Shown: in pieces, positions 3,303 through 47,754 of the stretch | Layout of the letters: each line of letters opens with the position of its first letter | Position numbering within the stretch: the first letter of the stretch is position 1 | Assembly (NCBI GenBank): GCA_041752595.1 | Contig: JBGSWE010000004.1 | Coordinates: forward strand, 151,057-215,056 | Direction of reading: 5' to 3' | Length of the DNA: 64,000 nucleotides | Origin: Candidatus Saccharimonadales bacterium | GTDB lineage: Bacteria > Patescibacteriota > Saccharimonadia > Saccharimonadales > JACDBH01 | Position numbers and translations under genes: made by a program | Notes under the pieces: generated by a model | Told to the model about the DNA's origin: nothing | Databases searched by the model: none | What the model saw: only the letters and a program-made list of their open reading frames with translations

Positions 3303-3307
3303 AGAAG

Positions 3308-9363: not shown

Positions 9364-10116
9364 ATGAAAAAAACTAGAAAAATAAGTATTAAGAAAAATA
9401 AAGGTCGCAAATTTTCAATTAGCTACGGTAAAAAAACCATCAATCTTATTGCCAATAAGGTGATAATTTTTCGACTTATGCGTAATCTGCATGGTCGATT
9501 TTGGGGAGTGGCAGGTCTCGGTATCATGTTGCTTGGACTAATAGTTTGCTTACTAGTGCGTCCAGACATGTTTTTACTGTCAACTGCGTACAGCGAGTTT
9601 GGTCGTGATGTAAGGACGGCGCCGTATTTAGCCGTATCATTATTTTTCGGTGCATACGGTTTGTGGCGTTGGCGCAACTACCTAAGACGCACATTAAGGC
9701 ACGCTAGGCCAGTTACTACTTTGGTTGGCTTTACTGTTGCTGGTCTTTATATTGCCGCTCTTATGCCGATTGCATGGGAACCATGGCCATATCGCCTGCA
9801 TGTTTTTGGCGTGGCTTTAGCTGCTGTTAGTATGGCGCTGACAGTTGTTATCGACACATTGTTAACAAAAACTCGTAAAAATAAGCGTTTACAGCTTTGG
9901 AGAATGCTTAGGTTGGTTTCTTTTATTTTGATAGTTATTGGTGGTTATTTAACTCTTGGATCAAACAGTAACTTAAACTGGTTTCAGTTAGCATTATTAG
10001 GAGAGTTAATGATTTTCTTTGGTTATGGTATTTGGGTCATCGACAAAACATACAGAGGAGAAGGAGCAAGGTCATACTTCTCAAGATTATTAAGCAAAGT
10101 AGTACTGATTGACTAA
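9364..10116 (+). CDS. Hypothetical polytopic membrane protein
   Basis: 250 aa with about 6 TM helices. It converges on crtEb with a 4-nt 3' overlap. The start is uncertain, since the basic N-terminal 40 aa may not be translated. Confidence 0.45.
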   Translation: MKKTRKISIKKNKGRKFSISYGKKTINLIANKVIIFRLMRNLHGRFWGVAGLGIMLLGLIVCLLVRPDMFLLSTAYSEFGRDVRTAPYLAVSLFFGAYGLWRWRNYLRRTLRHARPVTTLVGFTVAGLYIAALMPIAWEPWPYRLHVFGVALAAVSMALTVVIDTLLTKTRKNKRLQLWRMLRLVSFILIVIGGYLTLGSNSNLNWFQLALLGELMIFFGYGIWVIDKTYRGEGARSYFSRLLSKVVLID

Positions 10117-10970
10117 ACCAAGTGTGTGTTAATGAGTAATATCGTAATAACAAAACCAACAAAGTAGTTTAATTTCATGAATCTTTTCCAGCCTCTATTT
10201 GAAAGTGATGATTTAGCATCAGATATATCCCAGTAAGGCAGTATATTAAATACGTAACTAAATCCCACTATACCTACAATCATCGGACCTGTGCCCTTAA
10301 GCAGTAAAAGTTCACAAGCTACTAAATAAAGCACTATACTTAGTCTTACGGTCCACTTAGCACCTAAAAAAGTCGCTATAGACGATATATTAGCTTTTCT
10401 ATCGGGAACAATGTCCTGAACTGCTCCAAATGCATGACTAGCCATACCCCACAAGAAAAAGCTTACTACGAATGGTAGATAGTATTGGTCCCAGCCAGTT
10501 AAAGCAATTGCGTATAACAATGGTCCTGCAAAATGTGCTGCAGATGTAGCCGAATCTAGAACTGGCCTTTCTTTAAACCTTAGATATGGCAAACTGTAGG
10601 CTAAGACCATAAAAATCACCAGCAATAAAACTGTATTTGCACCTACACTTCCCTGAGAAATCATCCAGAATATAAAAGGTATATTTAGTAATATTGCTGA
10701 TATAAGAGTTGTTTTATGTAGTGACTTCTCAAGGACTACACCTTCTAAGCCTGATTTCCTGGGATTACGTTTGTCAGATTCATAATCAAAAACGTCATTA
10801 ACCCCATACATTAATAAATTATAAGGAATAAGAAAATACAGAGTACCAATAATGAATAACTTATCTACTTCACCGCCAGTTACTAAATAGGCTGCTCCAA
10901 AAGGAAATGCTGTATTCACCCAAGAAATGGGTCTAGAAGACATAATTAATCGTTTAATTGTGTGGATCAT
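10113..10970 (-). CDS. crtEb: UbiA-family prenyltransferase, lycopene-elongase-like
   Basis: 285 aa, polytopic. It has the Asp-rich motifs NDVFDYESD and QDIVPDRK. It is the last gene of the crt operon and has a TAATG overlap with the upstream gene. Confidence 0.7.
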   Translation of the reverse strand: MIHTIKRLIMSSRPISWVNTAFPFGAAYLVTGGEVDKLFIIGTLYFLIPYNLLMYGVNDVFDYESDKRNPRKSGLEGVVLEKSLHKTTLISAILLNIPFIFWMISQGSVGANTVLLLVIFMVLAYSLPYLRFKERPVLDSATSAAHFAGPLLYAIALTGWDQYYLPFVVSFFLWGMASHAFGAVQDIVPDRKANISSIATFLGAKWTVRLSIVLYLVACELLLLKGTGPMIVGIVGFSYVFNILPYWDISDAKSSLSNRGWKRFMKLNYFVGFVITILLINTHLV

Positions 10971-11257
10971 TATTCTTTACTCCCCAAATATTTCCATACA
11001 GTAGGTATTATCATCATACCTGCTATTGTATACGCAAAATCTTCAATTGGGGCCATTCCTATAAAAAGATTAAGGTAACTATCATCATTATAGGCAACTA
11101 TTTCGTTACCAACAATTAGTGAGTCAAAAATTGCTGTCATAACAAGAAGTACTAATGTAGCCAAGAACCATTTTTTATTAAACAGATCTTTATTATAAAA
11201 CCATGTAATTAGAAAAACGATTAAGACAATTATTGAATTTAGTATCAAGTATCTCAT
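10970..11257 (-). CDS. Lycopene-cyclase-domain small subunit (CrtYf/CrtYd-like)
   Basis: 3 TM helices and an APIEDFAY motif. I place the start at Met17 of the tracked ORF, because that ATG forms an ATGA overlap (11254-11257) with the upstream stop. Confidence 0.7.
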   Translation of the reverse strand: MRYLILNSIIVLIVFLITWFYNKDLFNKKWFLATLVLLVMTAIFDSLIVGNEIVAYNDDSYLNLFIGMAPIEDFAYTIAGMMIIPTVWKYLGSKE

Positions 11258-11565
11258 TCTACTTTTCCTAATGATTTTCGCCACACTAGTAATATGGTGT
11301 AGCAAAGTAGTAATAAAAAGAATAACTCCTCGATTGGCACTTCATACATTACTCTAATTCCCGTAAGGTATCTAGCTGATCCAACATAAAATATATTTAA
11401 AACTACCCCCAAAATATCCCAAATTAAGAAAAAACCAATTGAAACGATAAGTGTTATTAGAGTTCTTTTTCTATCAACAAAGAATGCAAGTTTGTACCTA
11501 TAGTCTGCTAATGATAGCCCTGCTATAGAAATAATTAACAGAAATAAATATAAGAATTTGATCAT
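11254..11565 (-). CDS. Lycopene-cyclase-domain small subunit (CrtYe/CrtYc-like)
   Basis: 103 aa with 3 TM helices. It has LADYRYKLAFF near the N-terminus and a VPIEELFF motif (the PxEE of the heterodimeric cyclase family). Confidence 0.7.
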   Translation of the reverse strand: MIKFLYLFLLIISIAGLSLADYRYKLAFFVDRKRTLITLIVSIGFFLIWDILGVVLNIFYVGSARYLTGIRVMYEVPIEELFFLLLLCYTILLVWRKSLGKVE

Positions 11566-13097
11566 TAAATTTTTGGTAGTTTTGTTAACGGCGATGAAGA
11601 CCGATCATTTGATAAATGTTTAACAATTAATTCTGCGCTTATTAAGCACATTGGCAAACCAACACCAGGAATTGTGTTGCCGCCTACGTAGTATAGATTA
11701 TTAACTTTTTTACTCTTGTTTCTTGGCCTAAACAGGGCACTTTGTCGAAGTGTATGGCTAAGTCCTAAGGCGCTACCCTGCCAAGAGTTGTAATCGTTTG
11801 TAAAATCAGTTGGAGTATAGGTCTGCTTATAAACTATACGACTATCTAGATCTGGTTCGCCAATAACATGTTTGAACTGTTCGTAATATTGTTTAACGAG
11901 CTTAGTTCGCTCAGACTTAGACATATCTCTAGCTGGTAAAGGTACAAGAATGAATATGTTTTCATGCCCTTTTGGTGCTACGGAATTATCTGTAGCACTG
12001 GGTTTACAGACATAAATTGATGCCGGAGTGGGCCAATCTTTTGTTTCAAATATTTCTTTAAAGTTTTTCTTCCAATCCTTAGTAAAGTATAGATTATGAT
12101 GCTCTAATTGAGGCAATGATCCTTTGACTCCAATGTAGTAAAGCAGCGCAGAGGGTCCGGCAGTGCGTTTCCCCCAATATTTTGCAGGATAAGATTGGTG
12201 ACTCGCGTCTAGCAATTTTGTTTCTGTGAAATGTAGATCGGCATTACTAATCACAATATCCGATTTAATAACCTCACCACTCATAAGTTCAATGGCTGTT
12301 GCACGTTTGTCTTTAACAATAATCTTTTTGACTGGAGCGCTAGTAATCATATTCACGCCGAGTTTTTTAGCTATGCCAATTAGCGAGTCTATTACGTTGT
12401 ATATACCACCCTTAGGATAGAAAACTCCTTCTTCGAAATCCATATAACTCATTAAATGATAAAGTGCCGGTGCATTATATGGTGAGGCACCTAAGAAAAC
12501 CATTGGGTATTCTAGTATTTGTTTCAGTCTTTGATCTTCAAAATATTTACTTACATAATTATCGATAGATTGAGTAGCAACAGAAGCCATGAACGGACCG
12601 CTTTTTAATATGCTTGGTTTAGTAAAACCTTTTACACCGTTAAAATTAGTGTATAAAAAGGAATCAATTGCAGTTAAGTAGGTACCCTTGGCTCTAGAAA
12701 CATATTTTTCTAGCGATTCCCCACTTCCTTGCTCAATAGATTCAAAAGTTTTAGAGTCTAGTTTTAAATTACCGGCTACAGTAATTGGTTCATTATCCTC
12801 AAAAAATACTTTATATGCAGGACTAAGTTTTTGAAGCTTCAAATGCTTATTAATGTCTTCACCAATTAGCTCATAAAAATGCTCAAACACTTTTGGCATC
12901 AAATACCACGATGGACCCATATCAAAAGTAAAGCCATCTATTTTGAACTGTCTTGCCCTACCCCCTAGATTATCTAGTTTTTCATAGAGGCTGACTTCGT
13001 GGCCTTGTTTTGCAAGTAATATGGCTGTTGCTATACCACCAATACCTCCACCGATAATTGTTACAGTTTTAGAATTATCAGACATTTTAGGATACAA
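11565..13097 (-). CDS. crtI: Phytoene desaturase
   Basis: 510 aa. N-terminal FAD Rossmann motif TIIGGGIGGIATAILLAKQGHEVSLYEKLDNLGGRA, and a C-terminal GGNTIPGVGLP. Confidence 0.9.
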   Translation of the reverse strand: MYPKMSDNSKTVTIIGGGIGGIATAILLAKQGHEVSLYEKLDNLGGRARQFKIDGFTFDMGPSWYLMPKVFEHFYELIGEDINKHLKLQKLSPAYKVFFEDNEPITVAGNLKLDSKTFESIEQGSGESLEKYVSRAKGTYLTAIDSFLYTNFNGVKGFTKPSILKSGPFMASVATQSIDNYVSKYFEDQRLKQILEYPMVFLGASPYNAPALYHLMSYMDFEEGVFYPKGGIYNVIDSLIGIAKKLGVNMITSAPVKKIIVKDKRATAIELMSGEVIKSDIVISNADLHFTETKLLDASHQSYPAKYWGKRTAGPSALLYYIGVKGSLPQLEHHNLYFTKDWKKNFKEIFETKDWPTPASIYVCKPSATDNSVAPKGHENIFILVPLPARDMSKSERTKLVKQYYEQFKHVIGEPDLDSRIVYKQTYTPTDFTNDYNSWQGSALGLSHTLRQSALFRPRNKSKKVNNLYYVGGNTIPGVGLPMCLISAELIVKHLSNDRSSSPLTKLPKI

Positions 13098-13929
13098 CTC
13101 TATTTAGTGAATTCTTTGCACGTACAGATGCTAATATCTGTGCTTTTTTTAAATCAGTTATACGCACACGAGAAGTAGAGATGATACTAGCTGGTGTTTC
13201 GTCTAATTTTATTAACAGGGCAAAATAATAACGTGTTGCAACAGTGACTGCTGTTTTAGAGTTTTTTGGTAGTTGGTGTAGTGCGGGGATTGAGTGTGAA
13301 AAATCATGCTTAATATCTAAAACTATCTTATCTTTTGTAGCGTCATCTAGAATATTATTTTTGACTTCTGGAAAATACGAACGACCTAGTGTGCGAGTAT
13401 CCTCAGCAAAGTCACGCAAAAAATTCACTTTTTGAAATGCTGCCCCTAATGCTTCTGCCCCAGGCTTAAGGTGTGCATAGGTAGATTCATTGCCATCGGT
13501 AAAAACTCTTAAGCACATCAGTCCGACAACCTGGGCGGAGCCATAAATGTATTTATCATAAAGTGCTCTAGTGTATTTGACTGGCGGCGTAATATCCATC
13601 TCCATGCTACTAAGAAATGGATCTATAAGTTCACTGCCGAATTTGTACTGTTTTGCAGTTGCTACAAAGCTGTGAATAATTGGATTTGTACTAAAACCTG
13701 TTTCTAGAGCTCGGTAGGTGTCTTTTTTGAAGTTATCTAAGACTTCTCTTGCATCATCTCCTTTATAGGTGTCTACTATTTCATCTGCAACCCTAACCCA
13801 ACCATATATATTGAAAATGTGAGGCCTAATACTAGAATCATATAACCTCGATGCTGAGCCAAACGAAGTAGAGTATCGAATAGTTAATAGTCTTGATAGT
13901 TCAGCTGCTACGCTAGTGTAAGTATCCAT
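13087..13929 (-). CDS. crtB: Phytoene synthase
   Basis: 280 aa. It has the squalene/phytoene synthase signatures YGWVRVADEIVD, YGSAQVVGLMCLRVF and QKVNFLRDFAED. Confidence 0.9.
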   Translation of the reverse strand: MDTYTSVAAELSRLLTIRYSTSFGSASRLYDSSIRPHIFNIYGWVRVADEIVDTYKGDDAREVLDNFKKDTYRALETGFSTNPIIHSFVATAKQYKFGSELIDPFLSSMEMDITPPVKYTRALYDKYIYGSAQVVGLMCLRVFTDGNESTYAHLKPGAEALGAAFQKVNFLRDFAEDTRTLGRSYFPEVKNNILDDATKDKIVLDIKHDFSHSIPALHQLPKNSKTAVTVATRYYFALLIKLDETPASIISTSRVRITDLKKAQILASVRAKNSLNRVVS

Positions 13930-13930
13930 A

Positions 13931-15034
13931 TTATTTATTTCTTACAGTCATTGCTTTTACTAGATCATGATATAAGGCTTTTGATTCTTCGCTAATACTT
14001 AATGACGCTATTAACTCGTTTGCTTTATTAGCTAATTCGCTAATTTTTTGTTCGGCAGCCGCTTTGGCGCCGCATTCAATAAATATTTTACGAATTTCAT
14101 CGGCTTGTTCGGCTGTGACTAATTTATTTCCATAATTACTGGCTACAAAGGCTTGCTGTTGATCATCCATAAGTTTCCGAGCGTTTTGAGCCATCCAGGT
14201 TCTTCGGCCTTCGCGAATATCGCCAATAGTGCTTTTGCCGGTAATGTTTTCGTCACCGAATACTCCAAGTAAATCATCACTTAATTGAAATGCAACACCA
14301 AGTTGCATGCCTAAATATTTTAATTTATCAAGCTCTTCATTTGATTGTTCTGAAAGAACAGCGCCAAATAGTAATGGCGTAACAAACGAATAATGCGCAG
14401 TTTTAGTTCGACTGACAGTTATTGGATCGGTTTCTTCTTCAGGATAAAGGATCGCTTCTGTATCAATTAATTCACCGCCAGAAACTGTAAAGATTGCTTC
14501 TGTAAGAAGATTTTGAGCCAATATTTTCTGCTGAGGTGAAAAATTAGTTTCATTAATGAGTTGATAAGAAGCGGAGATGTTTATATCGCCTGCTAGAATT
14601 GCCGCAGAGGTAGAAAAATGATCAATGTCTTCACCGGCTATATCTTGATAAATTTTTTTATATTGACCAGCAACATTAGGTACCCCATAACGAACAAAAT
14701 CTCTATCGATAATATCGTCGTGAATTAACATTGCGGTATGTATCATTTCAAGTGAGGCACCAGCCTTACATATATCGAGATATTCAAGACCTCCATAAGC
14801 TTCGTAGGTTATAACTGCAATGTATGGACGCATTCTTTTACCACCAGCCCTAGACAGATTATGAATTACATCTATTAGCGTTTTGAATCTTGGGTGAATC
14901 AAACCCGCTTTTGAGGAACTGAGTGAATAATAATCATCAATTATTTTATTTACATGTTCAATAGTTTCTTCTTTCTTATGAATGAAGGTATTACCAGTTG
15001 TTAATTGATCTTTTTGTGATGAGGTTGGTTTCAT
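13931..15034 (-). CDS. crtE: Polyprenyl (geranylgeranyl) diphosphate synthase
   Basis: 367 aa. It has the first and second Asp-rich motifs LIHDDIIDRD and QLSDDLLGVFGD. Confidence 0.85.
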   Translation of the reverse strand: MKPTSSQKDQLTTGNTFIHKKEETIEHVNKIIDDYYSLSSSKAGLIHPRFKTLIDVIHNLSRAGGKRMRPYIAVITYEAYGGLEYLDICKAGASLEMIHTAMLIHDDIIDRDFVRYGVPNVAGQYKKIYQDIAGEDIDHFSTSAAILAGDINISASYQLINETNFSPQQKILAQNLLTEAIFTVSGGELIDTEAILYPEEETDPITVSRTKTAHYSFVTPLLFGAVLSEQSNEELDKLKYLGMQLGVAFQLSDDLLGVFGDENITGKSTIGDIREGRRTWMAQNARKLMDDQQQAFVASNYGNKLVTAEQADEIRKIFIECGAKAAAEQKISELANKANELIASLSISEESKALYHDLVKAMTVRNK

Positions 15035-16219: not shown

Positions 16220-17350
16220 ATGAAAATTGGACTAGTTTGCCCGTATGATTTCTTTAGGCACGGTGCTGTACAGAAATTGGTTATATTACTAGACGAAGAA
16301 CTTACATCAAGGGGTCATGATGTTCGAATTATCACCCCTAGGCCTAGGAATTATGACGGAGAAGTACCAGCTAGAACTATCTTTGTAGGTCGTTCTGCAA
16401 AATGGAATACTCCCCTTAAGACAACCCTTGAGGTTGGTATGAGTTTTGAGCCAAATGGACTTGAAGAAATGCTAGAAGCTGAAAACTTCGATGTTATACA
16501 TGTTCATGAACCTGAAATACCAGTATTGGGCGCACAAATAGCGTCTAGGGCCAATTGCCCAATTATTGCTACCTTTCATGCGACTCTTCCCGAAACAATA
16601 ATGGCACGCACTGTAGAATTATTTAGAATTCCTTATTCAAGATCAATATTTAGAAATCTTGCTGCAATGACTGCTGTATCTGAAAGTGCTGCAAAGTTTG
16701 TTCGTGAATGGTCTGGCCAAGAAGTTTCCTTAGTACCAAATTATATTGACCTCGAAATGTACAGGAAGGTAAAAAACACTAAACGTGATCCTAATACTAT
16801 TCTTTATCTGGGCAGGCTCGAAAAACGTAAAGGTGTAAAGTATTTACTTGAAGCTTTTGCTGAACTTGCAGAGAGAGATAAAAAAGTCCGTTTAGTAATA
16901 GCTGGTGATGGTCGTGAGAGGGAAAAATTAGAAGACTGGGTAAAAAATCATAAAGTACCTAGAGTTAAATTTATGGGAGCTATTTCTGAGTCTAAAAAAG
17001 TTAGCTTACTAAAAAGCGCTTCAGTGTTTTGTTCACCTGCAATTTACGGCGAAAGCTTTGGGGTAGTATTACTCGAAGCAATGGCTGCAAACACCCCGAC
17101 AGTAGCTGGAGACAATGCAGGATATCAGTGTGTAATGGTTGATACTGGTTTATTATCGCTAGTTAATCCAAAAGATACTACTGATTTTGCAAGGAGACTT
17201 GAAGTGTTCCTGCGAAATGAAAAAGTTAAAAATCTATGGCTTGAATGGGCAAAAGAGTATGTTGAGAATTTTGATAGTATTTCTGTAATTGATAAGTATG
17301 AAGCAGTTTATATAAAGGCAGTAAATAAACGTGCTAAATTAAAATCATGA
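16220..17350 (+). CDS. GT4-family glycosyltransferase
   Basis: 376 aa. It has the retaining GT-B E-x7-E motif (ESFGVVLLEAMAANTP). Confidence 0.8.
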   Translation: MKIGLVCPYDFFRHGAVQKLVILLDEELTSRGHDVRIITPRPRNYDGEVPARTIFVGRSAKWNTPLKTTLEVGMSFEPNGLEEMLEAENFDVIHVHEPEIPVLGAQIASRANCPIIATFHATLPETIMARTVELFRIPYSRSIFRNLAAMTAVSESAAKFVREWSGQEVSLVPNYIDLEMYRKVKNTKRDPNTILYLGRLEKRKGVKYLLEAFAELAERDKKVRLVIAGDGREREKLEDWVKNHKVPRVKFMGAISESKKVSLLKSASVFCSPAIYGESFGVVLLEAMAANTPTVAGDNAGYQCVMVDTGLLSLVNPKDTTDFARRLEVFLRNEKVKNLWLEWAKEYVENFDSISVIDKYEAVYIKAVNKRAKLKS

Positions 17351-18465
17351 AAATTGGCTTTGTATTAGACGATACCCTAGATAAAACCGATGGTGTTCAA
17401 CAGCATGTTTTAACTGTCGGTTCTTGGCTATCCAAGCAGGGTCATGAGGTTCATTACTTGGTTGCAAACACTACTCGAACAGATATAAACAACGTTCATA
17501 GCTTGGGCAGATTCGTAAACACTAAATACAATAAAAATAACGTTAGAACTCCATTGCCAGCAAATAAAAGAGTTATAAAAAAATTATTAAAAGAAGAAAA
17601 TTTCGATGTTTTACATGTTCAACTTCCCTATAGTCCATTTTTAGCTAAGCAAGCAATAAAAAACGCTTCTAATACAACTGCAGTAATTGGAACCTTTCAT
17701 ATTTTGCCAGCTTCTAGGTTGCATGGATATTCAAACAAAATTTTACGCGTAATGTTGGGTAAAAGCTTAAAACGCTTCGATAGTATTGTCGCCGTGAGTG
17801 AACCGGCTGTTCATTTTGCAAGAAAGGCTTATGGAATTAGTGCTACCTATTTACCTAATCCAATTGATGTTTCTTCTTTTAGAACCGGCAAAAGACTAGG
17901 TGAGTTTAGCTCTAAGAAGCTAAATATCGTATTTTTGGGAAGATTAGTTAAACGAAAAGGCATCATTGAGTTAGTAAAGGCCTTTAATGCTTTGCCTAGT
18001 GAAAAGGCAGATAAGTGTAGATTAATTATATGCGGTAAAGGTCCTTTAAAAAACAAAGCTAAATCTTTAGTTGGAACTGATAGAGATGTTATATTTACAG
18101 GCTTTGTTAGTGAAAAGGATAAACCTAATTATCTTGCTTCTGCTGATATTGCAGTTTTTCCTTCTTTAGGAGGTGAAAGTTTTGGAATCGTTTTGATAGA
18201 AGCAATGGCTTCCGGATCAAAGGTAGTAATTGGCGGAAATAATCCGGGATATAGTAGCATATTGGGTGCTCAGCCCTACTTACTATTCAACCCGAACGAT
18301 CAAGAAAATTTTGTTTCTCAGCTTGGTATGTTCATTAATGATGATGTGATGAGAGAAAAAATGTATATTTGGCAACAAGAGACTGTCGAACAATACGATA
18401 TTAGTATAGTTGGTAAAAAGTTGATAGATATCTACCTACAGGCATTGAATAGTAGGCGTGGCTAG
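17347..18465 (+). CDS. GT4-family glycosyltransferase
   Basis: 372 aa. ATGA overlap with the upstream gene. E-x7-E motif ESFGIVLIEAMASGSK. Confidence 0.8.
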   Translation: MKIGFVLDDTLDKTDGVQQHVLTVGSWLSKQGHEVHYLVANTTRTDINNVHSLGRFVNTKYNKNNVRTPLPANKRVIKKLLKEENFDVLHVQLPYSPFLAKQAIKNASNTTAVIGTFHILPASRLHGYSNKILRVMLGKSLKRFDSIVAVSEPAVHFARKAYGISATYLPNPIDVSSFRTGKRLGEFSSKKLNIVFLGRLVKRKGIIELVKAFNALPSEKADKCRLIICGKGPLKNKAKSLVGTDRDVIFTGFVSEKDKPNYLASADIAVFPSLGGESFGIVLIEAMASGSKVVIGGNNPGYSSILGAQPYLLFNPNDQENFVSQLGMFINDDVMREKMYIWQQETVEQYDISIVGKKLIDIYLQALNSRRG

Positions 18466-29841: not shown

Positions 29842-30150
29842 ATGACAGTCCTAGAAGCAGAACAGGTCGAGCCCAGGATAGAATTGCCTGCCGGAATAGA
29901 GATAAATAGTGAAGTTGTAAGCGACTTAGGAACTATTACTCTTCTTGCGGGCAATGTTTTAATTGTAAAAATTGATCCAGAAATTATAAATACCTATCAA
30001 AAGCATTCTGCTGAAGGTGTGGCATTATCTGGTTTACTATTTAATCTAAGGGAAAAATTAAGTAAAGAGCATCAACTGATTTTTAGTACTGTACCTGGTG
30101 AACCATCCAAGATTGGAATATGGGTAGGTTTAGATGACGGAGACAATTAA
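29842..30150 (+). CDS. Hypothetical protein
   Basis: I place the start at the internal ATG, which is preceded by AAGGAG (29832-37). The tracked N-terminal extension would run through the terminator. Confidence 0.5.
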   Translation: MTVLEAEQVEPRIELPAGIEINSEVVSDLGTITLLAGNVLIVKIDPEIINTYQKHSAEGVALSGLLFNLREKLSKEHQLIFSTVPGEPSKIGIWVGLDDGDN

Positions 30151-32477
30151 CTAATTTGATTCAATTTGAATTGAGTGTAGCGCTCAGCTGCCAGTCTAGA
30201 CAGTTCTTGGTCTTCGCCTTTATTAACAAACTTCATAGCGGTTGCAAGTAGTGGGTGTACTTCCGATAGCTTATCGTGCATTTCCTTAACAAGTTTTCTA
30301 TAGCCAGGATGACCTTGTGGTGATGTTCTAAGTTCGTGCAAATGGAAAGCTTCGCGTGCGTTATATGTTATCTTCCAGCGCATACGATGACCTAGGAGAG
30401 TTGCATACTGCGCTTCTAATTCATAGTTCTTACTTTGTAGTAGGCTAAATAATTCTGCGGCCATATCAAAACATGATTCATAATCATCAGCTAGACCAGC
30501 CTGCTCTATTAGACTAGGCATATCAAATCCATATCTTGGAGTAAGTTGTTGCCATTCTAAACTATCAACCATTCTGTGTCTTTGTAGGTCTCTAAATATT
30601 CCATAATCACAAATAAGATCGTAAGAATAGTGGGCTATTTCTAATGCTCTGCCCGGTTTATGTCTTCTGTTTAGCCTTTCTCCAATATATGTATCAAAAG
30701 TTTCCAGTTTTTGTTCATAGCTCCAGTTTGCAACTTCTTTATGTAGGTCTTTTAAACTCATATTACTGTGTTCGTAAAGCATGTGAGGTAGTAGATCCAG
30801 TTCGTTCCTGGGCCAATAATCAACTAGCTGAACGTCTTCATCTAATGATCCTGAATTGTTTGGAAGGAGTTTATCGTTAATATTTCGCATAGCACTATGC
30901 GTACTTGCCTTATAGGCAATGTTTGCCCCTCCCCTATCTGGCTTATCAGCTCTTTCTAGGAATGTGGGCATCGTTTTACGTGCTTCTATTAGCATAGCTT
31001 CTCCGGTAGTTTTGGCTTCAGGCAGGTCGTCGGAAAGCAAATGCATAATTAAACTTTCTAATGCTTGTCCTGAGGCAAATATTCCAACAGTTGATTTTGT
31101 GGCAACCGGTAAAACGGCCCTAACCGCATCACATGCTTGAGCTCTTGATGCTCCCTGGAATGCTACATCCCTTTCACTTTCTGGTACATTACTGTGTTCA
31201 CGCACATAAGAAGTTAGGACATGTACCATTTCTGAATATTTATCAAAAATAGCATCCATAGTTTCAATATATTTTGATTTTACTTCTTCTGATAATTGTT
31301 CGGGCACAAAATAACGGTACATTCCATTATTATCTTTTTGATCAAAATATATATAGCGAGTTGATTGCTCTAGGTAAGATGCAAGTCGACCCCACTCCAA
31401 TTTTTTGGTTAATAGATTACTGGCATTTTCTACAACTAAATGTTGTCCAACTAGTTGTTGAACAGAATCGTCACCGTAAGCTGTTATTACGCGGTGTAAA
31501 AGTTTCTCATCTTTGCCCTTTGCTCCTGCAAATTCATCTAGAATTGTAATGCGCATATCATCACCGCGACGACTTAGTCGGGCCATTGCTGCTGCAACTG
31601 TAGTTGCGGATAGCTTATCTGTAAATGCATAAACATCGCCATCGACATTTGTGACTGCTGATTCAAGTAACTCCCGACCTTCTGTAGTGATTATAAAGTT
31701 GCCATTTTTATTTTTCTTCACAAACAACGGATCATTATCTAGTTTATTTGGAGCAACTATTTCTTCTTGTTTTTGTTTAATAACTTCTTGAATAGGTGTA
31801 GCTGGTTTTGTATGTACGCTCAGTGGTGGTGCTGTTTCTGATACCGTTTTAGCTTTACTGATGTTTCCATGTAGTGCATTCCAGATACTTACTGAAATCT
31901 CATCAATTTCATTAGATGCGTTAATTACTTGATAATCTCTTTGTTTTGCCTCCCAAAGATAGCCAGCTCGGACTCTTTCTAAAAATGCTTCATCTAAATT
32001 ATCAAATCGTTCACCTGCCCCTCGTTTTTCCGCTCGGTCTCGCAGCGTAGCAACAGGTGCGTCAAGGATTATAGTCATATCTGGTTCCATATCACCTACT
32101 GCAAAATCAATTATTTTTGTGATTGTTTCGTAATCTGGGACATCACCACGACCATAATACTGAATAGCTAGAGTGCTAAGGTAGTTTCTGTCACATAAAC
32201 ATATGACTCCTTGTTCACGAGCCTTTCTAATAACCTCAAGTGACTGGCTACGAGCTGCGTTGTACAGTAATGCTTCTGTACGAGTGTTCATAGGATATTG
32301 AGGGTCCTGAGTCAGCATACGAAGCGTACGAGCGGTAATGTCGCTTTGGCTGTCTGGCTCCCTGAATAGTCTAACTGGGTATCCTTGCTCGCGTAGGCGT
32401 TCAGCAAGTAATTCGAGCTGCGTAGTTTTGCCGGAGCCTTGAGGACCTTCCAGTACAATATAGCGGCCACTATTCAT
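30147..32477 (-). CDS. Fusion protein: thymidylate kinase + tandem ThyX-like (flavin-dependent thymidylate synthase) domains
   Basis: 776 aa. The N-terminal roughly 200 aa look like Tmk (VLEGPQGSGKTTQ P-loop). The C-terminal roughly 550 aa hold two ThyX-like halves: one degenerate (WGRLASYLEQSTRY) and one with the RHR motif (DLQRHRMVDS...TPRY). Confidence 0.8.
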   Translation of the reverse strand: MNSGRYIVLEGPQGSGKTTQLELLAERLREQGYPVRLFREPDSQSDITARTLRMLTQDPQYPMNTRTEALLYNAARSQSLEVIRKAREQGVICLCDRNYLSTLAIQYYGRGDVPDYETITKIIDFAVGDMEPDMTIILDAPVATLRDRAEKRGAGERFDNLDEAFLERVRAGYLWEAKQRDYQVINASNEIDEISVSIWNALHGNISKAKTVSETAPPLSVHTKPATPIQEVIKQKQEEIVAPNKLDNDPLFVKKNKNGNFIITTEGRELLESAVTNVDGDVYAFTDKLSATTVAAAMARLSRRGDDMRITILDEFAGAKGKDEKLLHRVITAYGDDSVQQLVGQHLVVENASNLLTKKLEWGRLASYLEQSTRYIYFDQKDNNGMYRYFVPEQLSEEVKSKYIETMDAIFDKYSEMVHVLTSYVREHSNVPESERDVAFQGASRAQACDAVRAVLPVATKSTVGIFASGQALESLIMHLLSDDLPEAKTTGEAMLIEARKTMPTFLERADKPDRGGANIAYKASTHSAMRNINDKLLPNNSGSLDEDVQLVDYWPRNELDLLPHMLYEHSNMSLKDLHKEVANWSYEQKLETFDTYIGERLNRRHKPGRALEIAHYSYDLICDYGIFRDLQRHRMVDSLEWQQLTPRYGFDMPSLIEQAGLADDYESCFDMAAELFSLLQSKNYELEAQYATLLGHRMRWKITYNAREAFHLHELRTSPQGHPGYRKLVKEMHDKLSEVHPLLATAMKFVNKGEDQELSRLAAERYTQFKLNQIS

Positions 32478-41286: not shown

Positions 41287-41410
41287 ATTACATACATTTT
41301 ATATCACCTACCATAAAATAAGAAATACCAAACAGTAAATAGATGACAAATTAACAGATATGAGGTATCATTGACCCTGATTTATAATGTATAAATTGAC
41401 CATATATTTT

Positions 41411-41485
41411 AGGGGTATAGTACAACGGTTAGTATAAAGGTCTCCAAAACCTTAGATCGTGGTTCGATTCCACGTACCCCTGCCA
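41411..41485 (+). tRNA. tRNA-Trp (anticodon CCA), CCA encoded
   Basis: Cloverleaf fold. Acceptor stem AGGGGTA/TACCCCT, anticodon stem AAGGT/ACCTT with loop CTCCAAA, T-arm CGTGG-TTCGATT-CCACG. Confidence 0.9.
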
Positions 41486-41570
41486 AGTATAATAACTTTT
41501 ATTCTAAATGTCGTTTACAATTACACTTCTTATGCTTTGAGTTTAATACCTAGATATATACAATTTTTTT

Positions 41571-42215
41571 ATGAGCAATAGTAACGAAGAACTCAACGAA
41601 TTAGCAATTGAAGCCCATGATAGGTTAATTATTCTAGGAAATATTGCTGTTTCTTTTGCACAAGTAGAAAGATTGACAGTTTATTCTAAAGGAAATTTTG
41701 AAAATGATTCAGAGCATAGTTTTCATCTTGCGTTATCAGCTACGGAACTAGCCGCATCGTATTATCCAGAACTAGATACAGGCTTAGTTTCACAATTCTG
41801 CTTAGTTCATGATTTGCCTGAAATATATGCAGGAGATGTACCTTCTTATGATTTGTCTGATGAAGAGCGTAGAAGTAAAGAAAAAGCCGAAGCTATTGCA
41901 ACAGAGAGGTTGCTATCAGAATTACCACCACATATTGCTGATTTACTAAGTAGATATGAGAAACAAGAAGAACCTGAAGCTCGATTTGTAAGGCTAGTAG
42001 ATAAATTGATGCCGGCAGTTATACATGCTATTGCCAGTAAAGACAACAGAGAGATATTTCTACAGAAATACGGAATTAAAACAATTGAAGAACTTGAAGA
42101 ACGTAGTGTCCGTAGAACAAACGAATTAATAGAAATGTTCCCGGAGTTTGATTTAATTCATATGATTAGAATTCTTACTTCATCAACAGCTCGACGCAAT
42201 TTGTTTGATGATTAA
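41571..42215 (+). CDS. HD-domain phosphohydrolase (YfbR-like 5'-nucleotidase)
   Basis: 214 aa. It has the H...HD...D motif set (SEHSFHLAL, LVHDLPEIYAGD, LVDKL). Confidence 0.75.
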   Translation: MSNSNEELNELAIEAHDRLIILGNIAVSFAQVERLTVYSKGNFENDSEHSFHLALSATELAASYYPELDTGLVSQFCLVHDLPEIYAGDVPSYDLSDEERRSKEKAEAIATERLLSELPPHIADLLSRYEKQEEPEARFVRLVDKLMPAVIHAIASKDNREIFLQKYGIKTIEELEERSVRRTNELIEMFPEFDLIHMIRILTSSTARRNLFDD

Positions 42216-42230
42216 GTATAATAATGTGCT

Positions 42231-42300
42231 AGAAGTACAAAGTTAGCATAAAGGTCTCCAAAACCTTAGATCGTGGTTCGATTCCACGTACCCCTGCCAA
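42231..42300 (+). pseudogene. tRNA-Trp pseudo-copy / att-like direct repeat
   Basis: 42248-42300 is a 53-bp perfect copy of 41434-41486 (tRNA positions 24-75 plus 1). The D-arm region is about 80% similar. The 5' acceptor strand is not complementary, so it cannot fold into a tRNA. Confidence 0.85.
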
Positions 42301-42309
42301 ACTAATTTA

Positions 42310-43869
42310 TCATTGTTTTTCTGCCAAAAGTACTGCATCTGAATAACCAGATGGATAAGTAAGAGGCAATGTGCCACTAGCTTGAAATGTACCCATAGTA
42401 ACCGTTGCAGCATTCGTAGGATTAAACCATAATAACTTAATGGAACCACTACCGAATGACGCTAGATTAATTACAACATTTGATCTATTTGTTGGTATAT
42501 AGGCAATACCAATGCGATTATCAACAGATCTGGCTGATGTTGCATAGGTGTTAGTATTTACTGTTCCGTATCCGTTTGAAAGCATCTTTACACTGTTTCC
42601 AGCTTTGTGATCCGGCACTAATTCTACCTTATACTTGTTCATAAAAGCAATTAGACGTGCAACATCTTGACCTGAAGTATCCTGCATTGCATTTCGCCAT
42701 CTTGTGTCTACATCCCAAATATCCTCATGTCCATAACCATAGCCAACACCGCCACTAGTAAATGTCCAATAACCCTGTGATCTTAATCTACGGTTATCTG
42801 GTATCTGTTCTGGGAAATTATTAAGTCTTGGAAGTGTATTTCTTGCGTCGTACCATGCTTCGATTGTTATCACTGGTCTTATAGGTGAATTGTTATAATC
42901 CTTTATAGCTTCAATGTACGTTCTTTCGTCAGGATATGAGTATGACACTGTAAGCCATGCTTCATTATTAAAATATTGCGTAACTGAGTCGTTTCGGCTA
43001 GCGTGGTATCCCATTAAATGTCTAACAGACTCATTATTTCTGATAGCATTTGCCATGTTTTTTGTTGCTTGTACTTTGTCACTTTTATCTAAATTAGTTG
43101 GTACTTTAGAAATTGATTCGACTGTAACGTCAGGATCATTATCCCCACCCATAATCCACATTAGATTTTTCTTGTCTCCAAAACGCTTAGCGACGAATGT
43201 TCCATAGGTTGTTGCGTTCGTATTGTTTATATACGGACGCCAGTCTTCACCCCCATACCCATACCAAGCTGGAGCGAAGTTTATTTGTATGTTTCGAGAA
43301 GCAGCTTGGTCAATAATATAATCAATGTGATCCCAGTAATCATAGTCGGGACTAGATGCATTCGATGTTCTTGCACCAACTTCTTTAGGAGTAGATATAT
43401 TATATTTATCAGTAAAAGGAGCATCTCCGTAAATATTCGATATATTAGTGCCCTTATCTGGCATGGCTAATATATGCATTTGTACAGTATTGAATCCTTT
43501 CGCTTTTCTATCGTCTAAATGAGAAACTATATCTGACTGATTCATCCTTGTTGAGTGCAACCAACCCGTATCAGCGTAATAATAAAAAAACTTGTTATCT
43601 GCAGTTATAAATGATCTCCCATTAGCACTAACCTTGATTGGATATGTTCCACCGCTTGGCGGAGGTGTAACAGGTGTACTAAAAACAATCGAGGAACCAT
43701 TTGACGCAAGTGTGTCGCTGTTTTTTGAAACATTAGCACTAAGAGTACTGTTCTCTGCTTCATAAACAATAGATGGCAGGTTTGCTGCGATTAAACTTGG
43801 TAGATAAATCAAACAAATAATTGATACTACAGCAATAGAAATTTTTAAATTCTTTTTATTTATTAGCAT
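42310..43869 (-). CDS. Secreted glycoside-hydrolase-like protein (DUF4038/GH5-GH140-like)
   Basis: I place the start at Met21 of the tracked ORF, which gives a signal-peptide-like N-terminus. YYYADTGWLHSTRMNQSDIVSHLDDRKAKGFNTVQMHIL resembles the (beta/alpha)8 hydrolase DUF4038 N-terminus. Confidence 0.55.
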   Translation of the reverse strand: MLINKKNLKISIAVVSIICLIYLPSLIAANLPSIVYEAENSTLSANVSKNSDTLASNGSSIVFSTPVTPPPSGGTYPIKVSANGRSFITADNKFFYYYADTGWLHSTRMNQSDIVSHLDDRKAKGFNTVQMHILAMPDKGTNISNIYGDAPFTDKYNISTPKEVGARTSNASSPDYDYWDHIDYIIDQAASRNIQINFAPAWYGYGGEDWRPYINNTNATTYGTFVAKRFGDKKNLMWIMGGDNDPDVTVESISKVPTNLDKSDKVQATKNMANAIRNNESVRHLMGYHASRNDSVTQYFNNEAWLTVSYSYPDERTYIEAIKDYNNSPIRPVITIEAWYDARNTLPRLNNFPEQIPDNRRLRSQGYWTFTSGGVGYGYGHEDIWDVDTRWRNAMQDTSGQDVARLIAFMNKYKVELVPDHKAGNSVKMLSNGYGTVNTNTYATSARSVDNRIGIAYIPTNRSNVVINLASFGSGSIKLLWFNPTNAATVTMGTFQASGTLPLTYPSGYSDAVLLAEKQ

Positions 43870-43986
43870 TAAAAAAATATTATCTATCCTGATATTTATA
43901 ATATGCTTCATTATAAACAAGCTTAACAATTATAAAATATATAGTAAATATTCTTTTCAACAGAAGAAACGGAAGAATAGATAAGT

Positions 43987-44295
43987 TTATGAATCTTTTG
44001 TCTTTTTAGCCCTTCTTTCTTCAATTACTGTTGTACGTTTTTTCATGCGTAAACTTAAAAAGGTTGTTAGTAACCCAATTCCTATTAGTAAATAAAAAGT
44101 TGTTACAAACTTTCCAAGATCGGTTTTGGGCGTGATATCACCGTATCCTACGGTAGCTAAACTGACTACGGAAAAATAGTAAGCATCTAACCAGCTCAAA
44201 TCTTCTTGAAAGTGGAAAAATACTGTACCAAATGCTATTGAAAGTATCGCTAGGAATATTATGCTTCTATATAAAACTTTTTCACTTTGAGTCAT
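43987..44295 (-). CDS. Minimal two-TM potassium channel
   Basis: 102 aa. Two TM helices flank a pore helix and the selectivity filter TVGYGD. There is no cytoplasmic gating domain. Confidence 0.8.
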   Translation of the reverse strand: MTQSEKVLYRSIIFLAILSIAFGTVFFHFQEDLSWLDAYYFSVVSLATVGYGDITPKTDLGKFVTTFYLLIGIGLLTTFLSLRMKKRTTVIEERRAKKTKDS

Positions 44296-45348: not shown

Positions 45349-45380
45349 AAAAAACTAGGCTACTTTCGGGTGTAGCCTAG
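45349..45380 (-). terminator. Rho-independent terminator after the rhodopsin gene
   Basis: 9-bp stem CTAGGCTAC/GTAGCCTAG (45355-63 / 45372-80), followed by UUUUUU on the minus strand. Confidence 0.75.
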
Positions 45381-45396
45381 TTTAAAAAAACCGAGC

Positions 45397-46110
45397 TTAT
45401 TTTGAGTCAGAACCTCTCATTTTGAGTATCATTCCAAGTGATACGATTCCAAATACTGCCTTTGCTGTTACGTCTAGGAACGCATATAGAGCTGTTTCTG
45501 TATCGATTGATACATAACCATATCCAGATTCTCCTAGTAACCAAACAACTGGGTACCATATCCATACTGCACTCAGAAACACGAGTAGAGTCATGTACAA
45601 GTCATCTGTTTTAGCTCCGTGTGCTTTGGCATGTTTACGAAGTTCTGTAAACATTAACCATATTAGTACTAAGAACCACAAACAACTTGCTATATACCAT
45701 ACAGCTATGTCTTGTGTGTCTGTGCTAAAGTTTGCAATTGCACCGGTTGCAATCATGGCAACATCGGCAAATAGTATCGCACCGATCAAGCCTAGACGCT
45801 GTCTAGAGTGCTTGGCATCGCTAGCGTCAGGCATAGCAACTACTATTAGTGTCAGTAAGAGTAGTGGTGTGGTTAGTAGCCAATCAATGTAACGACCAAA
45901 GAATATGGTTTTATCATCTATCATTATCACACCCTGGCCGCTAGCCATAGAGTAATAAGCAGCTGCAGCAATGGTTGTTACCATCAATGCTAAAATTACG
46001 TGATATTTATGTTCTGCCTTGAACTTATTCCAGAACGTCAAGATACCAATGGTACCCAGAGTCATACCAGCGAATCCTAGCCACAACCAGGTAGTAGTTA
46101 AATCGTCCAT
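45397..46110 (-). CDS. Type-1 (microbial) rhodopsin
   Basis: 237 aa with 7 TM helices. Helix C reads RYIDWLLTTPLLLLT. Helix F reads WIWYPVVWLLG. Helix G reads FLDVTAKAVFG, which carries the Schiff-base Lys (K217). Confidence 0.9.
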   Translation of the reverse strand: MDDLTTTWLWLGFAGMTLGTIGILTFWNKFKAEHKYHVILALMVTTIAAAAYYSMASGQGVIMIDDKTIFFGRYIDWLLTTPLLLLTLIVVAMPDASDAKHSRQRLGLIGAILFADVAMIATGAIANFSTDTQDIAVWYIASCLWFLVLIWLMFTELRKHAKAHGAKTDDLYMTLLVFLSAVWIWYPVVWLLGESGYGYVSIDTETALYAFLDVTAKAVFGIVSLGMILKMRGSDSK

Positions 46111-46272
46111 AATTAAATTGTTTCCTTATATTCCATTATAATTTTTGCTTTCGACACTTTATACCTCCTCATTATTATTATTATTACCCTTTTCAATAAC
46201 TGTTTTTATGAGTACTTGAAAACGATAGTGCTTATGATTTTTATAATACTACAGTTTATTAATTATTAAACA

Positions 46273-46926
46273 TTAACTTTTTACGTCGCCCGTAAACCAA
46301 TCTCGTCTTAGACTTTCTAAAGGTAATCCGTTTTCAAGTAAATCCGCGCTTAAATTATCAACCATTTGATCTGGCCCTGATATATAGATCATCTTTTTGC
46401 TAATAAATTCAATCGATTCTATGTTAATACGTTTACTTTGAAATATTATTTCTAATTTTTCTTGTTTGCTTTGCCATAATTCAAATTCATCTTTAAATAA
46501 AAAGCTATTATTACTCGAACTGTATATTAACTTTACATTTATCTCTTTATTATCGTTTAGAGCTTGTGACAATATTGATCTAAACGGCGTTATACCTACT
46601 CCACCCGCCAGAAAGATTTTAGGCTTATCATCATCTGTCCACACAAAATCACCCTCTATGTTATAGCCATTTATAACACTCCCGATTTTTAACTGTGCGA
46701 GATTTTGTTTAAACTCACTTGTTCCGATCCAGGTTGTTATCTGAATATGTTTTTCGTGAGGGGCCGATGCGATCGTAAAGCGCCTTTCATCCACTCCCCA
46801 GGAATTTCTAGGTAATTCTAGCCTAATTGACTGGCCTGCAAGCCAGCTAGCTGCTTCGACTGGCTCAAAATAATACGACCATATTTCTTGGCCTTCGTCT
46901 TTTTTACTTAAGTAACGTAACTTCAT
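46273..46926 (-). CDS. Ferredoxin-reductase-like FAD/NAD(P)-binding oxidoreductase
   Basis: It has an RRFTIASAP flavin-binding motif and an AGGVGITPFRSIL nucleotide-binding motif. The start is either the ATG at 46926 or the GTG at 46947. It is very AT-rich. Confidence 0.65.
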   Translation of the reverse strand: MKLRYLSKKDEGQEIWSYYFEPVEAASWLAGQSIRLELPRNSWGVDERRFTIASAPHEKHIQITTWIGTSEFKQNLAQLKIGSVINGYNIEGDFVWTDDDKPKIFLAGGVGITPFRSILSQALNDNKEINVKLIYSSSNNSFLFKDEFELWQSKQEKLEIIFQSKRINIESIEFISKKMIYISGPDQMVDNLSADLLENGLPLESLRRDWFTGDVKS

Positions 46927-46956
46927 TATTAGGTTATTGTAACCCACTAAAAAGTA

Positions 46957-47143: not shown

Positions 47144-47464
47144 ATGCGTAATAGCCTCTCTTTTAATCAAAACAAAAACATTATTGACGTTTTATTCTCA
47201 TTTAGTGGGCGCGACCAGTATGCTCGCCCTGTTCGTCTTACCTGGGAGGGTGAAGATTATTTCTTGGGCGGAGTCCAGTTTTGGTATGCCGAACACAAGG
47301 GTTCGGTCTTAGTTCATCATTACCGAATTAGCGATGAATACGGCGAATATACCTTTGAGCTATCACTCGAGACAGAAAACCTCATATGGAGCCTAGACAA
47401 AGTCACCGAATCTAGTTCAACCGGTACAAATCTTGTAAGCAAGTTTGTAGGAGCGACAGCATGA
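47144..47464 (+). CDS. Small protein, paralogue A (unknown family)
   Basis: 106 aa. The core RLTWEGEDYFLGGVQFWYAEHKGSVLVHHYRISDEYGEYTFELSLETENLIWSL aligns with the next ORF. Confidence 0.6.
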   Translation: MRNSLSFNQNKNIIDVLFSFSGRDQYARPVRLTWEGEDYFLGGVQFWYAEHKGSVLVHHYRISDEYGEYTFELSLETENLIWSLDKVTESSSTGTNLVSKFVGATA

Positions 47465-47754
47465 GGCCGTCACTAGATGAGCCAATCAGTGTGGTGTGGT
47501 ACTACAACGCCAAGCTACGCTCGCAACAGCCATATATGCTGACCTGGAATAATCAAGATTATCATTTAGGCAAAGTGGATTTCTGGCACAAGACCTGGAG
47601 CGGCAAACATCAGATCCATCATTTTTCTATCAGCGACAAAGACGGAGGCGCCTATTTTAAGCTCGCCCTCAACACTGACACACTTAATTGGGTGCTTGAG
47701 GAATATATGAGCGCTCATGATGCCGCAATAACTTATGGAAGGAGCACGGCATGA
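47461..47754 (+). CDS. Small protein, paralogue B (unknown family)
   Basis: 97 aa. ATGA overlap with paralogue A and an AGGAG SD. The core is MLTWNNQDYHLGKVDFWHKTWSGKHQIHHFSISDKDGGAYFKLALNTDTLNWVL. Confidence 0.6.
   Translation: MRPSLDEPISVVWYYNAKLRSQQPYMLTWNNQDYHLGKVDFWHKTWSGKHQIHHFSISDKDGGAYFKLALNTDTLNWVLEEYMSAHDAAITYGRSTA

Follow-up and report, generated by a model that had tools for sequence, protein, structure and literature searches.

The stretch of DNA analysed here (the window; 64,000 nucleotides of contig JBGSWE010000004.1 from a Candidatus Saccharimonadales bacterium) carries a genuine type-1 rhodopsin gene and, about 34 kb from it, a carotenoid operon. The rhodopsin is read as an outward proton pump of the SacR family, the already-described rhodopsins of Saccharibacteria, working with scavenged retinal, and the operon as the source of a decaprenoxanthin-type cyclic C50 carotenoid and not of a retinal precursor; this joint reading was given a probability of about 0.7. 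The coordinates of the features are collected in Table 1.

The rhodopsin matched the Pfam family PF01036 (Bac_rhodopsin) over residues 4-228 with 171.6 bits (cutoff 24.6; E = 2.3e-50), and a sequence search of the Protein Data Bank (PDB) returned 154 distinct rhodopsin sequences at E <= 1e-5, with the Rubrobacter xylanophilus rhodopsin (6kfq), the Synechocystis halorhodopsin and cyanorhodopsins as the top matches. Seven hydrophobic segments were found in the sequence. The AlphaFold2 model, calculated with 50 homologs, showed seven helices and the B-C beta-hairpin of the bacteriorhodopsin (BR) type, with a mean predicted local distance difference test score (pLDDT) of 94.3 and a predicted template-modelling score (pTM) of 0.90; Foldseek superposed it on solved rhodopsins with TM-scores of 0.84-0.93.

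Residues were mapped by alignment of the rhodopsin with BR, the numbering of which was verified, and 120 homologs. The equivalences are D76 = D85, T80 = T89, L84 = L93, T87 = D96, D213 = D212 and K217 = K216. The protein has the Schiff-base lysine K217, the D76/D213 pair, R73, E205 and the full retinal pocket (W77, W183, Y186, P187 and W190, each invariant in the clade, as is K217), and D116 and H37, the latter in transmembrane helix 2 (TM2), were also recorded as key residues. The position of the BR donor D96 is without a carboxylate: it is occupied by T87, giving the triad D76-T80-T87 (DTT). The Logan assembly of run SRR28170465, made independently, gives the same protein residue for residue, which rules out an error in a single assembly as the source of T87.

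A preliminary description, made from the letters of the window, had placed a rhodopsin open reading frame (ORF) with the signature strings RYIDWLLTTPLLLLT, WIWYPVVW and DVTAK at 45397-46110; ORF and strings matched exactly, and the gene and its residue-level description were confirmed. The alignment upheld its BR correspondences for D76, T80, T87, D213 and K217, together with L84 at BR-93, and hence its statement that the counterion and the Schiff-base lysine are intact and that Thr replaces the donor carboxylate in a pump-compatible protein. Its suggestion of green tuning from the Leu at BR-93 was not retained: this Leu is invariant across the clade and carries no special tuning information, and the call of green absorption used below is based on measured SacR spectra.

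At E <= 1e-10, a search of protein clusters with the rhodopsin gave 246 proteins. In the 53 cluster representatives closest to it (44-75% identity), the residue at BR-96 was Ser in 51, Thr in one and Gly in one, and the positions R82, Y83, D85, W86, T89, T90, L93, M118, G122, W182, Y185, P186, W189, E204, D212, A215 and K216 (BR numbering) were invariant or nearly so. At the pocket and transport positions surveyed, Ser to Thr at BR-96 was the sole departure of the window rhodopsin from the clade consensus. Beyond the Saccharibacteria clade the matches were actinobacterial DTG rhodopsins, followed by DTD rhodopsins of Ktedonobacteria and haloarchaea. In a neighbour-joining tree (no bootstrap) the rhodopsin nested among those of Saccharibacteria metagenome-assembled genomes (MAGs), including stratfreshDB bins from Kiruna and Umea. 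The DTT triad was found in three sequences of the Saccharibacteria clade (the window rhodopsin, P0024 and L019, a named Saccharibacteria MAG), and in this tree each of the three has DTS sisters; judged from these placements, Ser to Thr at BR-96 is a recurrent conservative substitution and not a new motif class. In the closest relative on a long contig (P0387; 74% identity) the BR-96 residue is Ser, encoded by AGT, against Thr (ACA) in the window. Rare DTT members have already been listed within the proteobacterial DTG/DTS clades (PMC10154332). The window protein is a new member of the already-described SacR family with one conservative change at the donor site.

The Saccharibacteria setting assumed in the preliminary description is borne out by RpoA, 87% identical to a protein named Candidatus Saccharibacteria. 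Rhodopsin, carotenoid genes and housekeeping genes (the cysteinyl-tRNA synthetase CysRS, RecR, RpoA and others) share one NCBI contig of 235,382 bp, and the GC content is even across the window (34-43%). Where homologs carry an organism name, those of the rhodopsin (61%) and of the UbiA-family protein of the operon (57-60%) are from Candidatus Saccharibacteria, and one member of a UbiA cluster at 71% identity is named Candidatus Saccharimonadales. On these sequence matches the attribution of the genome holds. A scan of the GTDB species set with the rhodopsin protein itself found no relative, and a scan with the clade alignment found only rhodopsins of 45-57% identity, the nearest all in Saccharibacteria MAGs, the Kiruna and Umea bins among them; the lineage of this rhodopsin is apparently absent from the set.

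The six carotenoid genes are tightly packed on the minus strand, with start and stop codons overlapping at 11565 and 10970 and with crtI overlapping crtB by 11 nt. Their products were compared with the reference ORFs of experimentally characterised C50 enzymes given in the supplement of Li et al. 2019. The two small subunits with lycopene-cyclase domains are 41-45% identical to Corynebacterium CrtYe (E about 1e-23) and 33-40% identical to CrtYf (35% to the LbtB part of Dietzia LbtBC), respectively. The UbiA-family protein encoded last is identical over its full length to the characterised CrtEb of Corynebacterium glutamicum at 51.6% of positions (E = 1e-102), to M. luteus CrtE2 at 47% and to Dietzia LbtC at 44% (E = 1e-102 to 1e-77 for the three). 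The same layout, with overlapping cyclase subunits and an elongase, has been described for cyclic-C50 clusters (PMC6393565). In C. glutamicum, CrtEb turns lycopene into flavuxanthin, CrtYeYf cyclises this C50 intermediate, and deletion of crtEb leads to accumulation of lycopene although CrtYeYf is present (PMC3598387). Because of the orthology of CrtEb, CrtYe and CrtYf, the Ye-Yf-Eb gene order and these genetics, the operon most likely makes, by analogy, a decaprenoxanthin-type cyclic C50 carotenoid and not beta-carotene, and since the deletion leaves lycopene despite CrtYeYf the cluster is not expected to supply beta-carotene. A side activity of the cyclase on lycopene is possible. The C50 product probably serves photoprotection or a membrane function in a sunlit habitat.

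The carotenoid cluster was sampled widely. A search with the UbiA-family protein gave at least 8,000 candidates, of which the best 120 clusters were at least 53% identical, and those with organism names were all from Saccharibacteria; GCA_016789455.1, on a contig of 1.29 Mb, and closer relatives have the same six-gene cluster. Genes for C50 lycopene elongases in Patescibacteria, including one Saccharibacteria MAG, have already been published (PMC9948471). The cluster is widespread in Saccharibacteria and most likely unrelated to retinal. In the JGI contig Ga0247843_1000009 of a relative (430,620 bp), the locus of a DTS rhodopsin is collinear with 33.6-52.9 kb of the window, and the C50 cluster lies about 33 kb from that rhodopsin with the same flanking genes. 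Given this collinearity, the arrangement with the two loci 34 kb apart is inherited within this lineage. The remaining SacR loci have different neighbours, without any crt gene within 10 kb of the rhodopsin.

Several genes beside the operon were recorded. Two glycosyltransferases of the GT4 family and an alpha/beta-hydrolase-like protein of 308 amino acids without annotation are encoded at 15192-18465, divergently beside crtE, and are conserved in three relatives. The glucosyltransferase behind the decaprenoxanthin glucosides of C. glutamicum is reportedly not known; these three genes are for that reason candidate carotenoid-modifying genes. In two relatives a Cu/Zn superoxide dismutase gene, absent from the window, stands divergently beside crtE (L002, 5329-5913; L013, 5327-5860), and the cluster of GCA_016789455.1 has genes for PAS/GAF sensor kinases, for response regulators and for TspO as its flanking neighbours. 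These neighbours hint at light- or stress-linked control of the carotenoid operon.

Enzymes that form retinal were searched for with the profiles of Blh/Brp (PF15461) and of the RPE65 family of carotenoid-cleavage dioxygenases (PF03055). No match was obtained in any window ORF of at least 150 amino acids, among the unannotated window ORFs at E <= 10, or in the roughly 10 kb beyond the left edge of the window (about 74 kb covered in all), and neither enzyme was found beside any related rhodopsin examined. This agrees with the preliminary description, which had seen no such gene in the window. That text had also reported lycopene synthesis and a cyclase some 30 kb from the rhodopsin. The genes are there, at 10113-15034 and about 34 kb off, but they are not simply that, since the terminal crtEb-like gene of the UbiA family had been missed. 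It had further stated that scavenging of retinal was proposed because carotenoid genes were absent. The basis given by Jaffe et al. 2022 (PMC9296517) was instead that SacR genomes of 79-98% completeness have no blh; the crt table in their supplement deals with Actinobacteria. Its expectation that a rhodopsin together with a crt operon would revise or refine the scavenging picture survives in its second half: the co-occurrence refines the picture and does not overturn it, because the cluster is common in Saccharibacteria, the elongase genes have been published and a relative has the same arrangement. To judge from the DNA surveyed, the lineage makes carotenoids yet lacks the beta-carotene branch and the cleavage step, and the published scavenging model still stands, refined and not contradicted.

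It is unlikely that the lineage is autonomous for retinal, the heterodimeric cyclase also making beta-carotene and a cleavage enzyme elsewhere or unrecognised, for example one of the orphan membrane proteins, yielding retinal. The situation would then resemble the haloarchaeal branch point at which elongase and cyclase compete for lycopene. A lycopene pathway and a heterodimer of lycopene-cyclase domains do share a contig with a rhodopsin in two genomes, two membrane proteins without annotation (of 250 and 301 amino acids) are conserved beside crtEb, and the part inspected is only about 7% of the genome. Against this, the operon ends in a full-length CrtEb ortholog whose translation is coupled to that of the cyclase genes, the pattern of cyclic-C50 clusters; C. 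glutamicum without CrtEb gives lycopene and not a cyclic C40 carotene; the ORFs scanned were without PF15461 or PF03055 signal even at E <= 10; SacR genomes at the completeness given above are without blh; and the crt cluster was sampled far more often than the rhodopsin. The 250-residue protein likewise speaks against autonomy, with relatives in 15 representative clusters among 1.84 billion proteins (exhaustive HMMER search) where Blh is a large family, and with three histidines only.

The same protein was considered separately as a cryptic Blh and was rejected as a detectable one. Copies of 76% identity are present in L002 and L003, and L013 has a gene of 250 amino acids. It has no Pfam family at E <= 10 beyond noise and no NCBIfam match, and a single-sequence AlphaFold2 model (pLDDT 59.5) was unusable for a fold search. 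Two further Blh-sized proteins without annotation in the left flank (L094) are soluble, with phosphatase- or phosphoesterase-like motifs and no Pfam match, and were rejected as well.

For the rhodopsin itself, the pumping mechanism is drawn by analogy from the characterised SacRs and the donor-less DTG/DTS pumps. Three SacRs are outward proton pumps that absorb near 550 nm, form an M intermediate and take up retinal within 30 s (PMC9296517); the mechanism and pH dependence of donor-less pumps have been described (PMC8927995, PMC10154332), and SacRs have been recovered only from acidic humic lakes (He et al., bioRxiv 2022.08.01.502354). In the window protein, all-trans-retinal on K217 would isomerise under green light (about 550 nm), and the Schiff-base proton would pass to D76 and be released outside. 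The Schiff base would then be reprotonated straight from the cytoplasmic solvent, along a hydrophilic cavity with T87 and the clade-invariant H37 in its wall; H37 aligns with BR-F42 and is common to the actinobacterial DTG rhodopsins. With direct reprotonation, turnover is predicted to depend on pH and to be favoured in acidic water. The proton gradient would drive the F1Fo ATP synthase, and hosts or surroundings would supply the retinal, as has been suggested for SacRs. With Thr in place of Ser at the donor position the hydroxyl is retained, and the kinetics should be only slightly changed.

Several points weigh against the joint reading. No DTT protein of the SacR clade has been characterised, and the identity of the window protein to the three characterised SacRs is gauged indirectly, through rhodopsins from named genomes of Saccharibacteria, stratfreshDB bins among them (45-57%). 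The proteorhodopsin paralogs of SAR11 with the DTT-T motif, and mutants engineered from DTE to DTT-T, showed neither pumping nor visible retinal binding in E. coli (PMC5864233); with their reduced pocket and a Thr as tuning residue, these call for caution but are no close precedent. On the carotenoid side, the resemblance of the cyclase subunits to C50 cyclases comes from a comparison with C50 references, and the beta-carotene-forming C40 enzymes (CrtYc/Yd) may be equally close. The search for retinal-forming enzymes covered about 74 kb (about 7%) of a genome of roughly 1 Mb, which leaves room for a blh gene elsewhere.

It is quite unlikely that the protein is no energy-conserving pump, being instead a slow-cycling photosensor or a largely retinal-free opsin with a light-independent role, for example in the scrambling of lipids or in organising the membrane. 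In favour are the missing donor carboxylate and the inactivity of the DTT-T proteorhodopsin paralogs in E. coli; opsins, one bacterial opsin included, have a retinal-independent scramblase activity, and this activity has been proposed as the reason why genomes without retinal synthesis carry opsin genes (bioRxiv 2025.08.17.670764). The residues of the retinal pocket and of the proton path are strictly conserved across the clade, however, implying selection for retinal photochemistry, and the DTS SacRs pump without a donor. No gene for a transducer of the HAMP or methyl-accepting chemotaxis protein (MCP) type is adjacent, the neighbours are not conserved across SacR loci, and the DTT-T proteins without activity come from another family and, in addition, have Thr as tuning residue.

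A functional coupling of the C50 operon with the rhodopsin, through a bound carotenoid partner or through a cryptic cleavage enzyme that gives retinal or an analogue, is decidedly improbable. Two versions are possible: the C50 carotenoid could bind the rhodopsin oligomer as a structural or light-harvesting partner, like bacterioruberin in archaerhodopsin-2, or an enzyme so far unrecognised, with the orphan membrane proteins by crtEb as candidates, could cleave a pathway intermediate into retinal or an analogue. If the cleavage version were true, the episymbionts would be chromophore-autonomous. A carotenoid-antenna site of the xanthorhodopsin type was considered and rejected: throughout the clade BR-W138 is replaced by Tyr or Phe and not by Gly, and the known fenestration mechanism is unsupported.

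Transport in another direction or of another ion, either inward proton pumping like that of xenorhodopsins or the Na+/Li+ pumping reported for the DTG rhodopsin MpR, is highly improbable: BcXeR, a xenorhodopsin of solved structure, matches well in sequence and fold and the three-letter motif alone does not predict function (PMC10154332), but D213 (BR-D212) is kept where the xenorhodopsin-like homolog P0071 has Pro, R73, E205 and the D76/T80 pair match outward pumps, and the rhodopsin nests in a clade whose measured members are outward proton pumps. Assignment to the xenorhodopsin or Anabaena sensory rhodopsin type was rejected, as D213, R73 and E205 are retained and P0071 has Pro in the D213 column.

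The overall significance of these results is modest, the chromophore puzzle being the one already published. A natural Ser-to-Thr variant of the donor-less SacR pumps offers a ready test of the BR-96 hydroxyl residue in proton uptake. At least one rhodopsin-bearing lineage of Saccharibacteria carries a complete C50-carotenoid operon on the same contig, so reduced episymbionts invest in an isoprenoid pigment of their own, yet apparently lack the final step towards retinal. The scavenging model is thereby sharpened: the gap is the formation and cleavage of beta-carotene, and not carotenogenesis as a whole.

Table 1. Features of the rhodopsin and carotenoid loci (positions in the window).
Feature	Position	Strand	Evidence
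Rhodopsin gene, SacR-clade type-1	45397..46110	minus	ATG-start ORF, 237 amino acids
Intrinsic-terminator-like hairpin	45352..45383	minus	Terminator scan and sequence reading
AT-rich intergenic leader, 162 bp, 5' of rhodopsin	46111..46272	minus	Sequence
Ferredoxin-reductase-like NAD-binding oxidoreductase	46273..46947	minus	Pfam NAD_binding_1; weak NCBIfam reductase matches
crtE-like polyprenyl (geranylgeranyl diphosphate, GGPP) synthase, first operon gene	13931..15034	minus	Pfam polyprenyl_synt, E = 1.5e-47; NCBIfam GGPP-synthase-type below cutoff
crtB, phytoene synthase	13087..13929	minus	Pfam SQS_PSY, E = 7.9e-38
crtI, phytoene desaturase	11565..13097	minus	NCBIfam crtI_fam, 529.9 bits (cutoff 238); Pfam Amino_oxidase
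CrtYe-like small lycopene-cyclase-domain subunit	11254..11565	minus	TIGR03462, 52.8 bits (cutoff 39.4)
CrtYf-like second small lycopene-cyclase-domain subunit	10970..11305	minus	TIGR03462, 49 bits
crtEb-like lycopene elongase (UbiA family), last operon gene	10113..10970	minus	NCBIfam NF009608, 399 bits (cutoff 217)
Orphan multi-pass membrane protein, 250 amino acids, convergent with crtEb	9364..10116	plus	Conserved at this position in three relatives
Second orphan multi-pass membrane protein, 301 amino acids	8377-9282	minus	Conserved downstream of crtEb in L002, L003 and L013

The rhodopsin gene has its own strong terminator, as the preliminary description had stated; this holds as a match to the consensus, with a perfect stem of 12 bp (five G-C pairs), a loop of 8 nt and the T-run TTTATTTTAT, starting 14 nt after the stop codon. 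A Shine-Dalgarno-like element (AAGGA) lies about 12 nt 5' of the ATG, and a promoter scan of the leader on the minus strand gave no convincing sigma-70 promoter. The oxidoreductase gene comes next upstream of the rhodopsin on the same strand; this adjacency is kept in the closest syntenic relative (L011, L012) and is absent beside the SacRs of L007-L010. Unrelated flavin reductases or pyridine-nucleotide oxidoreductases occur within a few kb at other SacR loci, which may be coincidence. The near-complete genome L007 (ENA contig ctg52850_29x_c, 945 kb) has two rhodopsin paralogs of the SacR clade 8 kb apart, with a photolyase, flavin reductases and a FUR regulator near them; photolyase-family genes flank the SacR of L008 too.

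Between the rhodopsin terminator and the downstream gene for a LysM/Rpf-like transglycosylase, the segment 45170-45337 is non-coding and conserved with L011. A riboswitch in this spacer was rejected, the Rfam match being at chance level only (best E = 0.73). On the other side, two overlapping tandem paralogous ORFs on the plus strand (47144-47464 and 47461-47754; 106 and 97 amino acids; no Pfam match) sit between the oxidoreductase and a Y-family polymerase gene; both have orthologs in L011 (6917-8187; tblastx 76-89%), where three more small ORFs are added to the run. The 2.7 kb at 41290-44013 are without counterpart in the collinear relative L011 and resemble an insertion beside a tRNA gene; they contain tRNA-Trp, an HD-domain gene, a truncated tRNA-like element (42234-42288; Rfam tRNA, 33 bits, model positions 9-63) and an apiosidase-like glycosidase gene.

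Elsewhere in the window, an ORF of 776 amino acids at 30147-32477 (minus strand) contains a thymidylate kinase domain and ThyX (Thy1) domains, looks like a Tmk-ThyX fusion and adjoins a dCTP deaminase gene. Ribosomal protein L1 (33350-34297, minus strand) was called at 315 amino acids with the L1 domain at residues 117-306 only, and the gene of L011 (20037 onwards) is similarly long at 319 amino acids, which points to an N-terminal extension shared by the two or to an upstream ORF that was not recognised. A run of small ORFs at 1048-3571 (also in L094), near tRNA-Gln and including a PIN-domain protein (2940-3302) and a ParE-like toxin, is a probable cluster of toxin-antitoxin modules.

Among known systems, the window rhodopsin is most directly compared with the characterised SacRs (SacR-NC335, -NC315 and -LP818; PMC9296517). 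The host phylum is the same and the proteins fall in the same clade in the tree with Saccharibacteria MAG rhodopsins; all are about 235-248 amino acids long, with the same pocket and counterions, Ser or Thr at the BR-E194 position, no carboxylate donor and no blh nearby (here within the window and 10 kb of its left flank). Unlike them, the window rhodopsin is DTT and not DTS, its sub-lineage is 45-57% identical to the rhodopsins of GTDB-listed Saccharibacteria genomes, and it shares a contig with a C50 carotenoid operon, which is not discussed in that paper. With BR and the DTD pumps (archaerhodopsins; Rubrobacter RxR, 6kfq) it shares the fold, the B-C hairpin and 32-34% identity, keeping R82, D85, T89, L93, D115, W182, Y185, P186, W189, E204, D212 and K216 of BR; it differs from BR in D96 to T, E194 to S, W138 to Y, M145 to F and T142 to C, and in having no carboxylic proton donor.

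The three-letter motif DTT is also that of the flotillin-associated rhodopsins of SAR11/Pelagibacterales (PMC5864233, PMC10308929). Those DTT-T proteins are paralogs of the proteorhodopsin family that have a reduced pocket and Thr as tuning residue; found in deep water and linked to flotillin, they do not function in E. coli, whereas the window rhodopsin has Leu at the tuning position, a full pocket and a place in the BR-like SacR clade.

The carotenoid operon resembles the decaprenoxanthin operon of C. glutamicum (crtE-cg0722-crtB-crtI-crtYe-crtYf-crtEb; PMC3598387) in gene order and overlapping frames. In contrast to the latter, neither a cg0722 (MMPL) gene nor a CrtR regulator was seen in the window, the operon is flanked by the two GT4 glycosyltransferases, the hydrolase-like gene and the orphan membrane proteins, and its host is an ultrasmall episymbiont.

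Finally, the rhodopsin was compared with the mirror proteorhodopsins PspR (Pseudomonas putida) and SpaR (Sphingomonas paucimobilis), with which it has in common a triad of Asp, Thr and a small or hydroxyl residue, a histidine in TM2, and an expected direct proton uptake from the cytoplasm with a preference for acidic pH. Its identity to SpaR (8anq), about 30%, is no higher than that to pumps of the BR type, and it belongs to a separate clade. The histidine differs in position, as mapped through BR numbering (PMC8927995) with PspR and SpaR outside the alignment: BR-T46 corresponds to Ala (A41) in the window rhodopsin and to His in theirs, and H37 lies one helical turn nearer the cytoplasm. F220 is kept where PspR has Tyr213. 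By analogy, we infer that the rhodopsin works like the donor-less DTG/DTS pumps without belonging to their clade.

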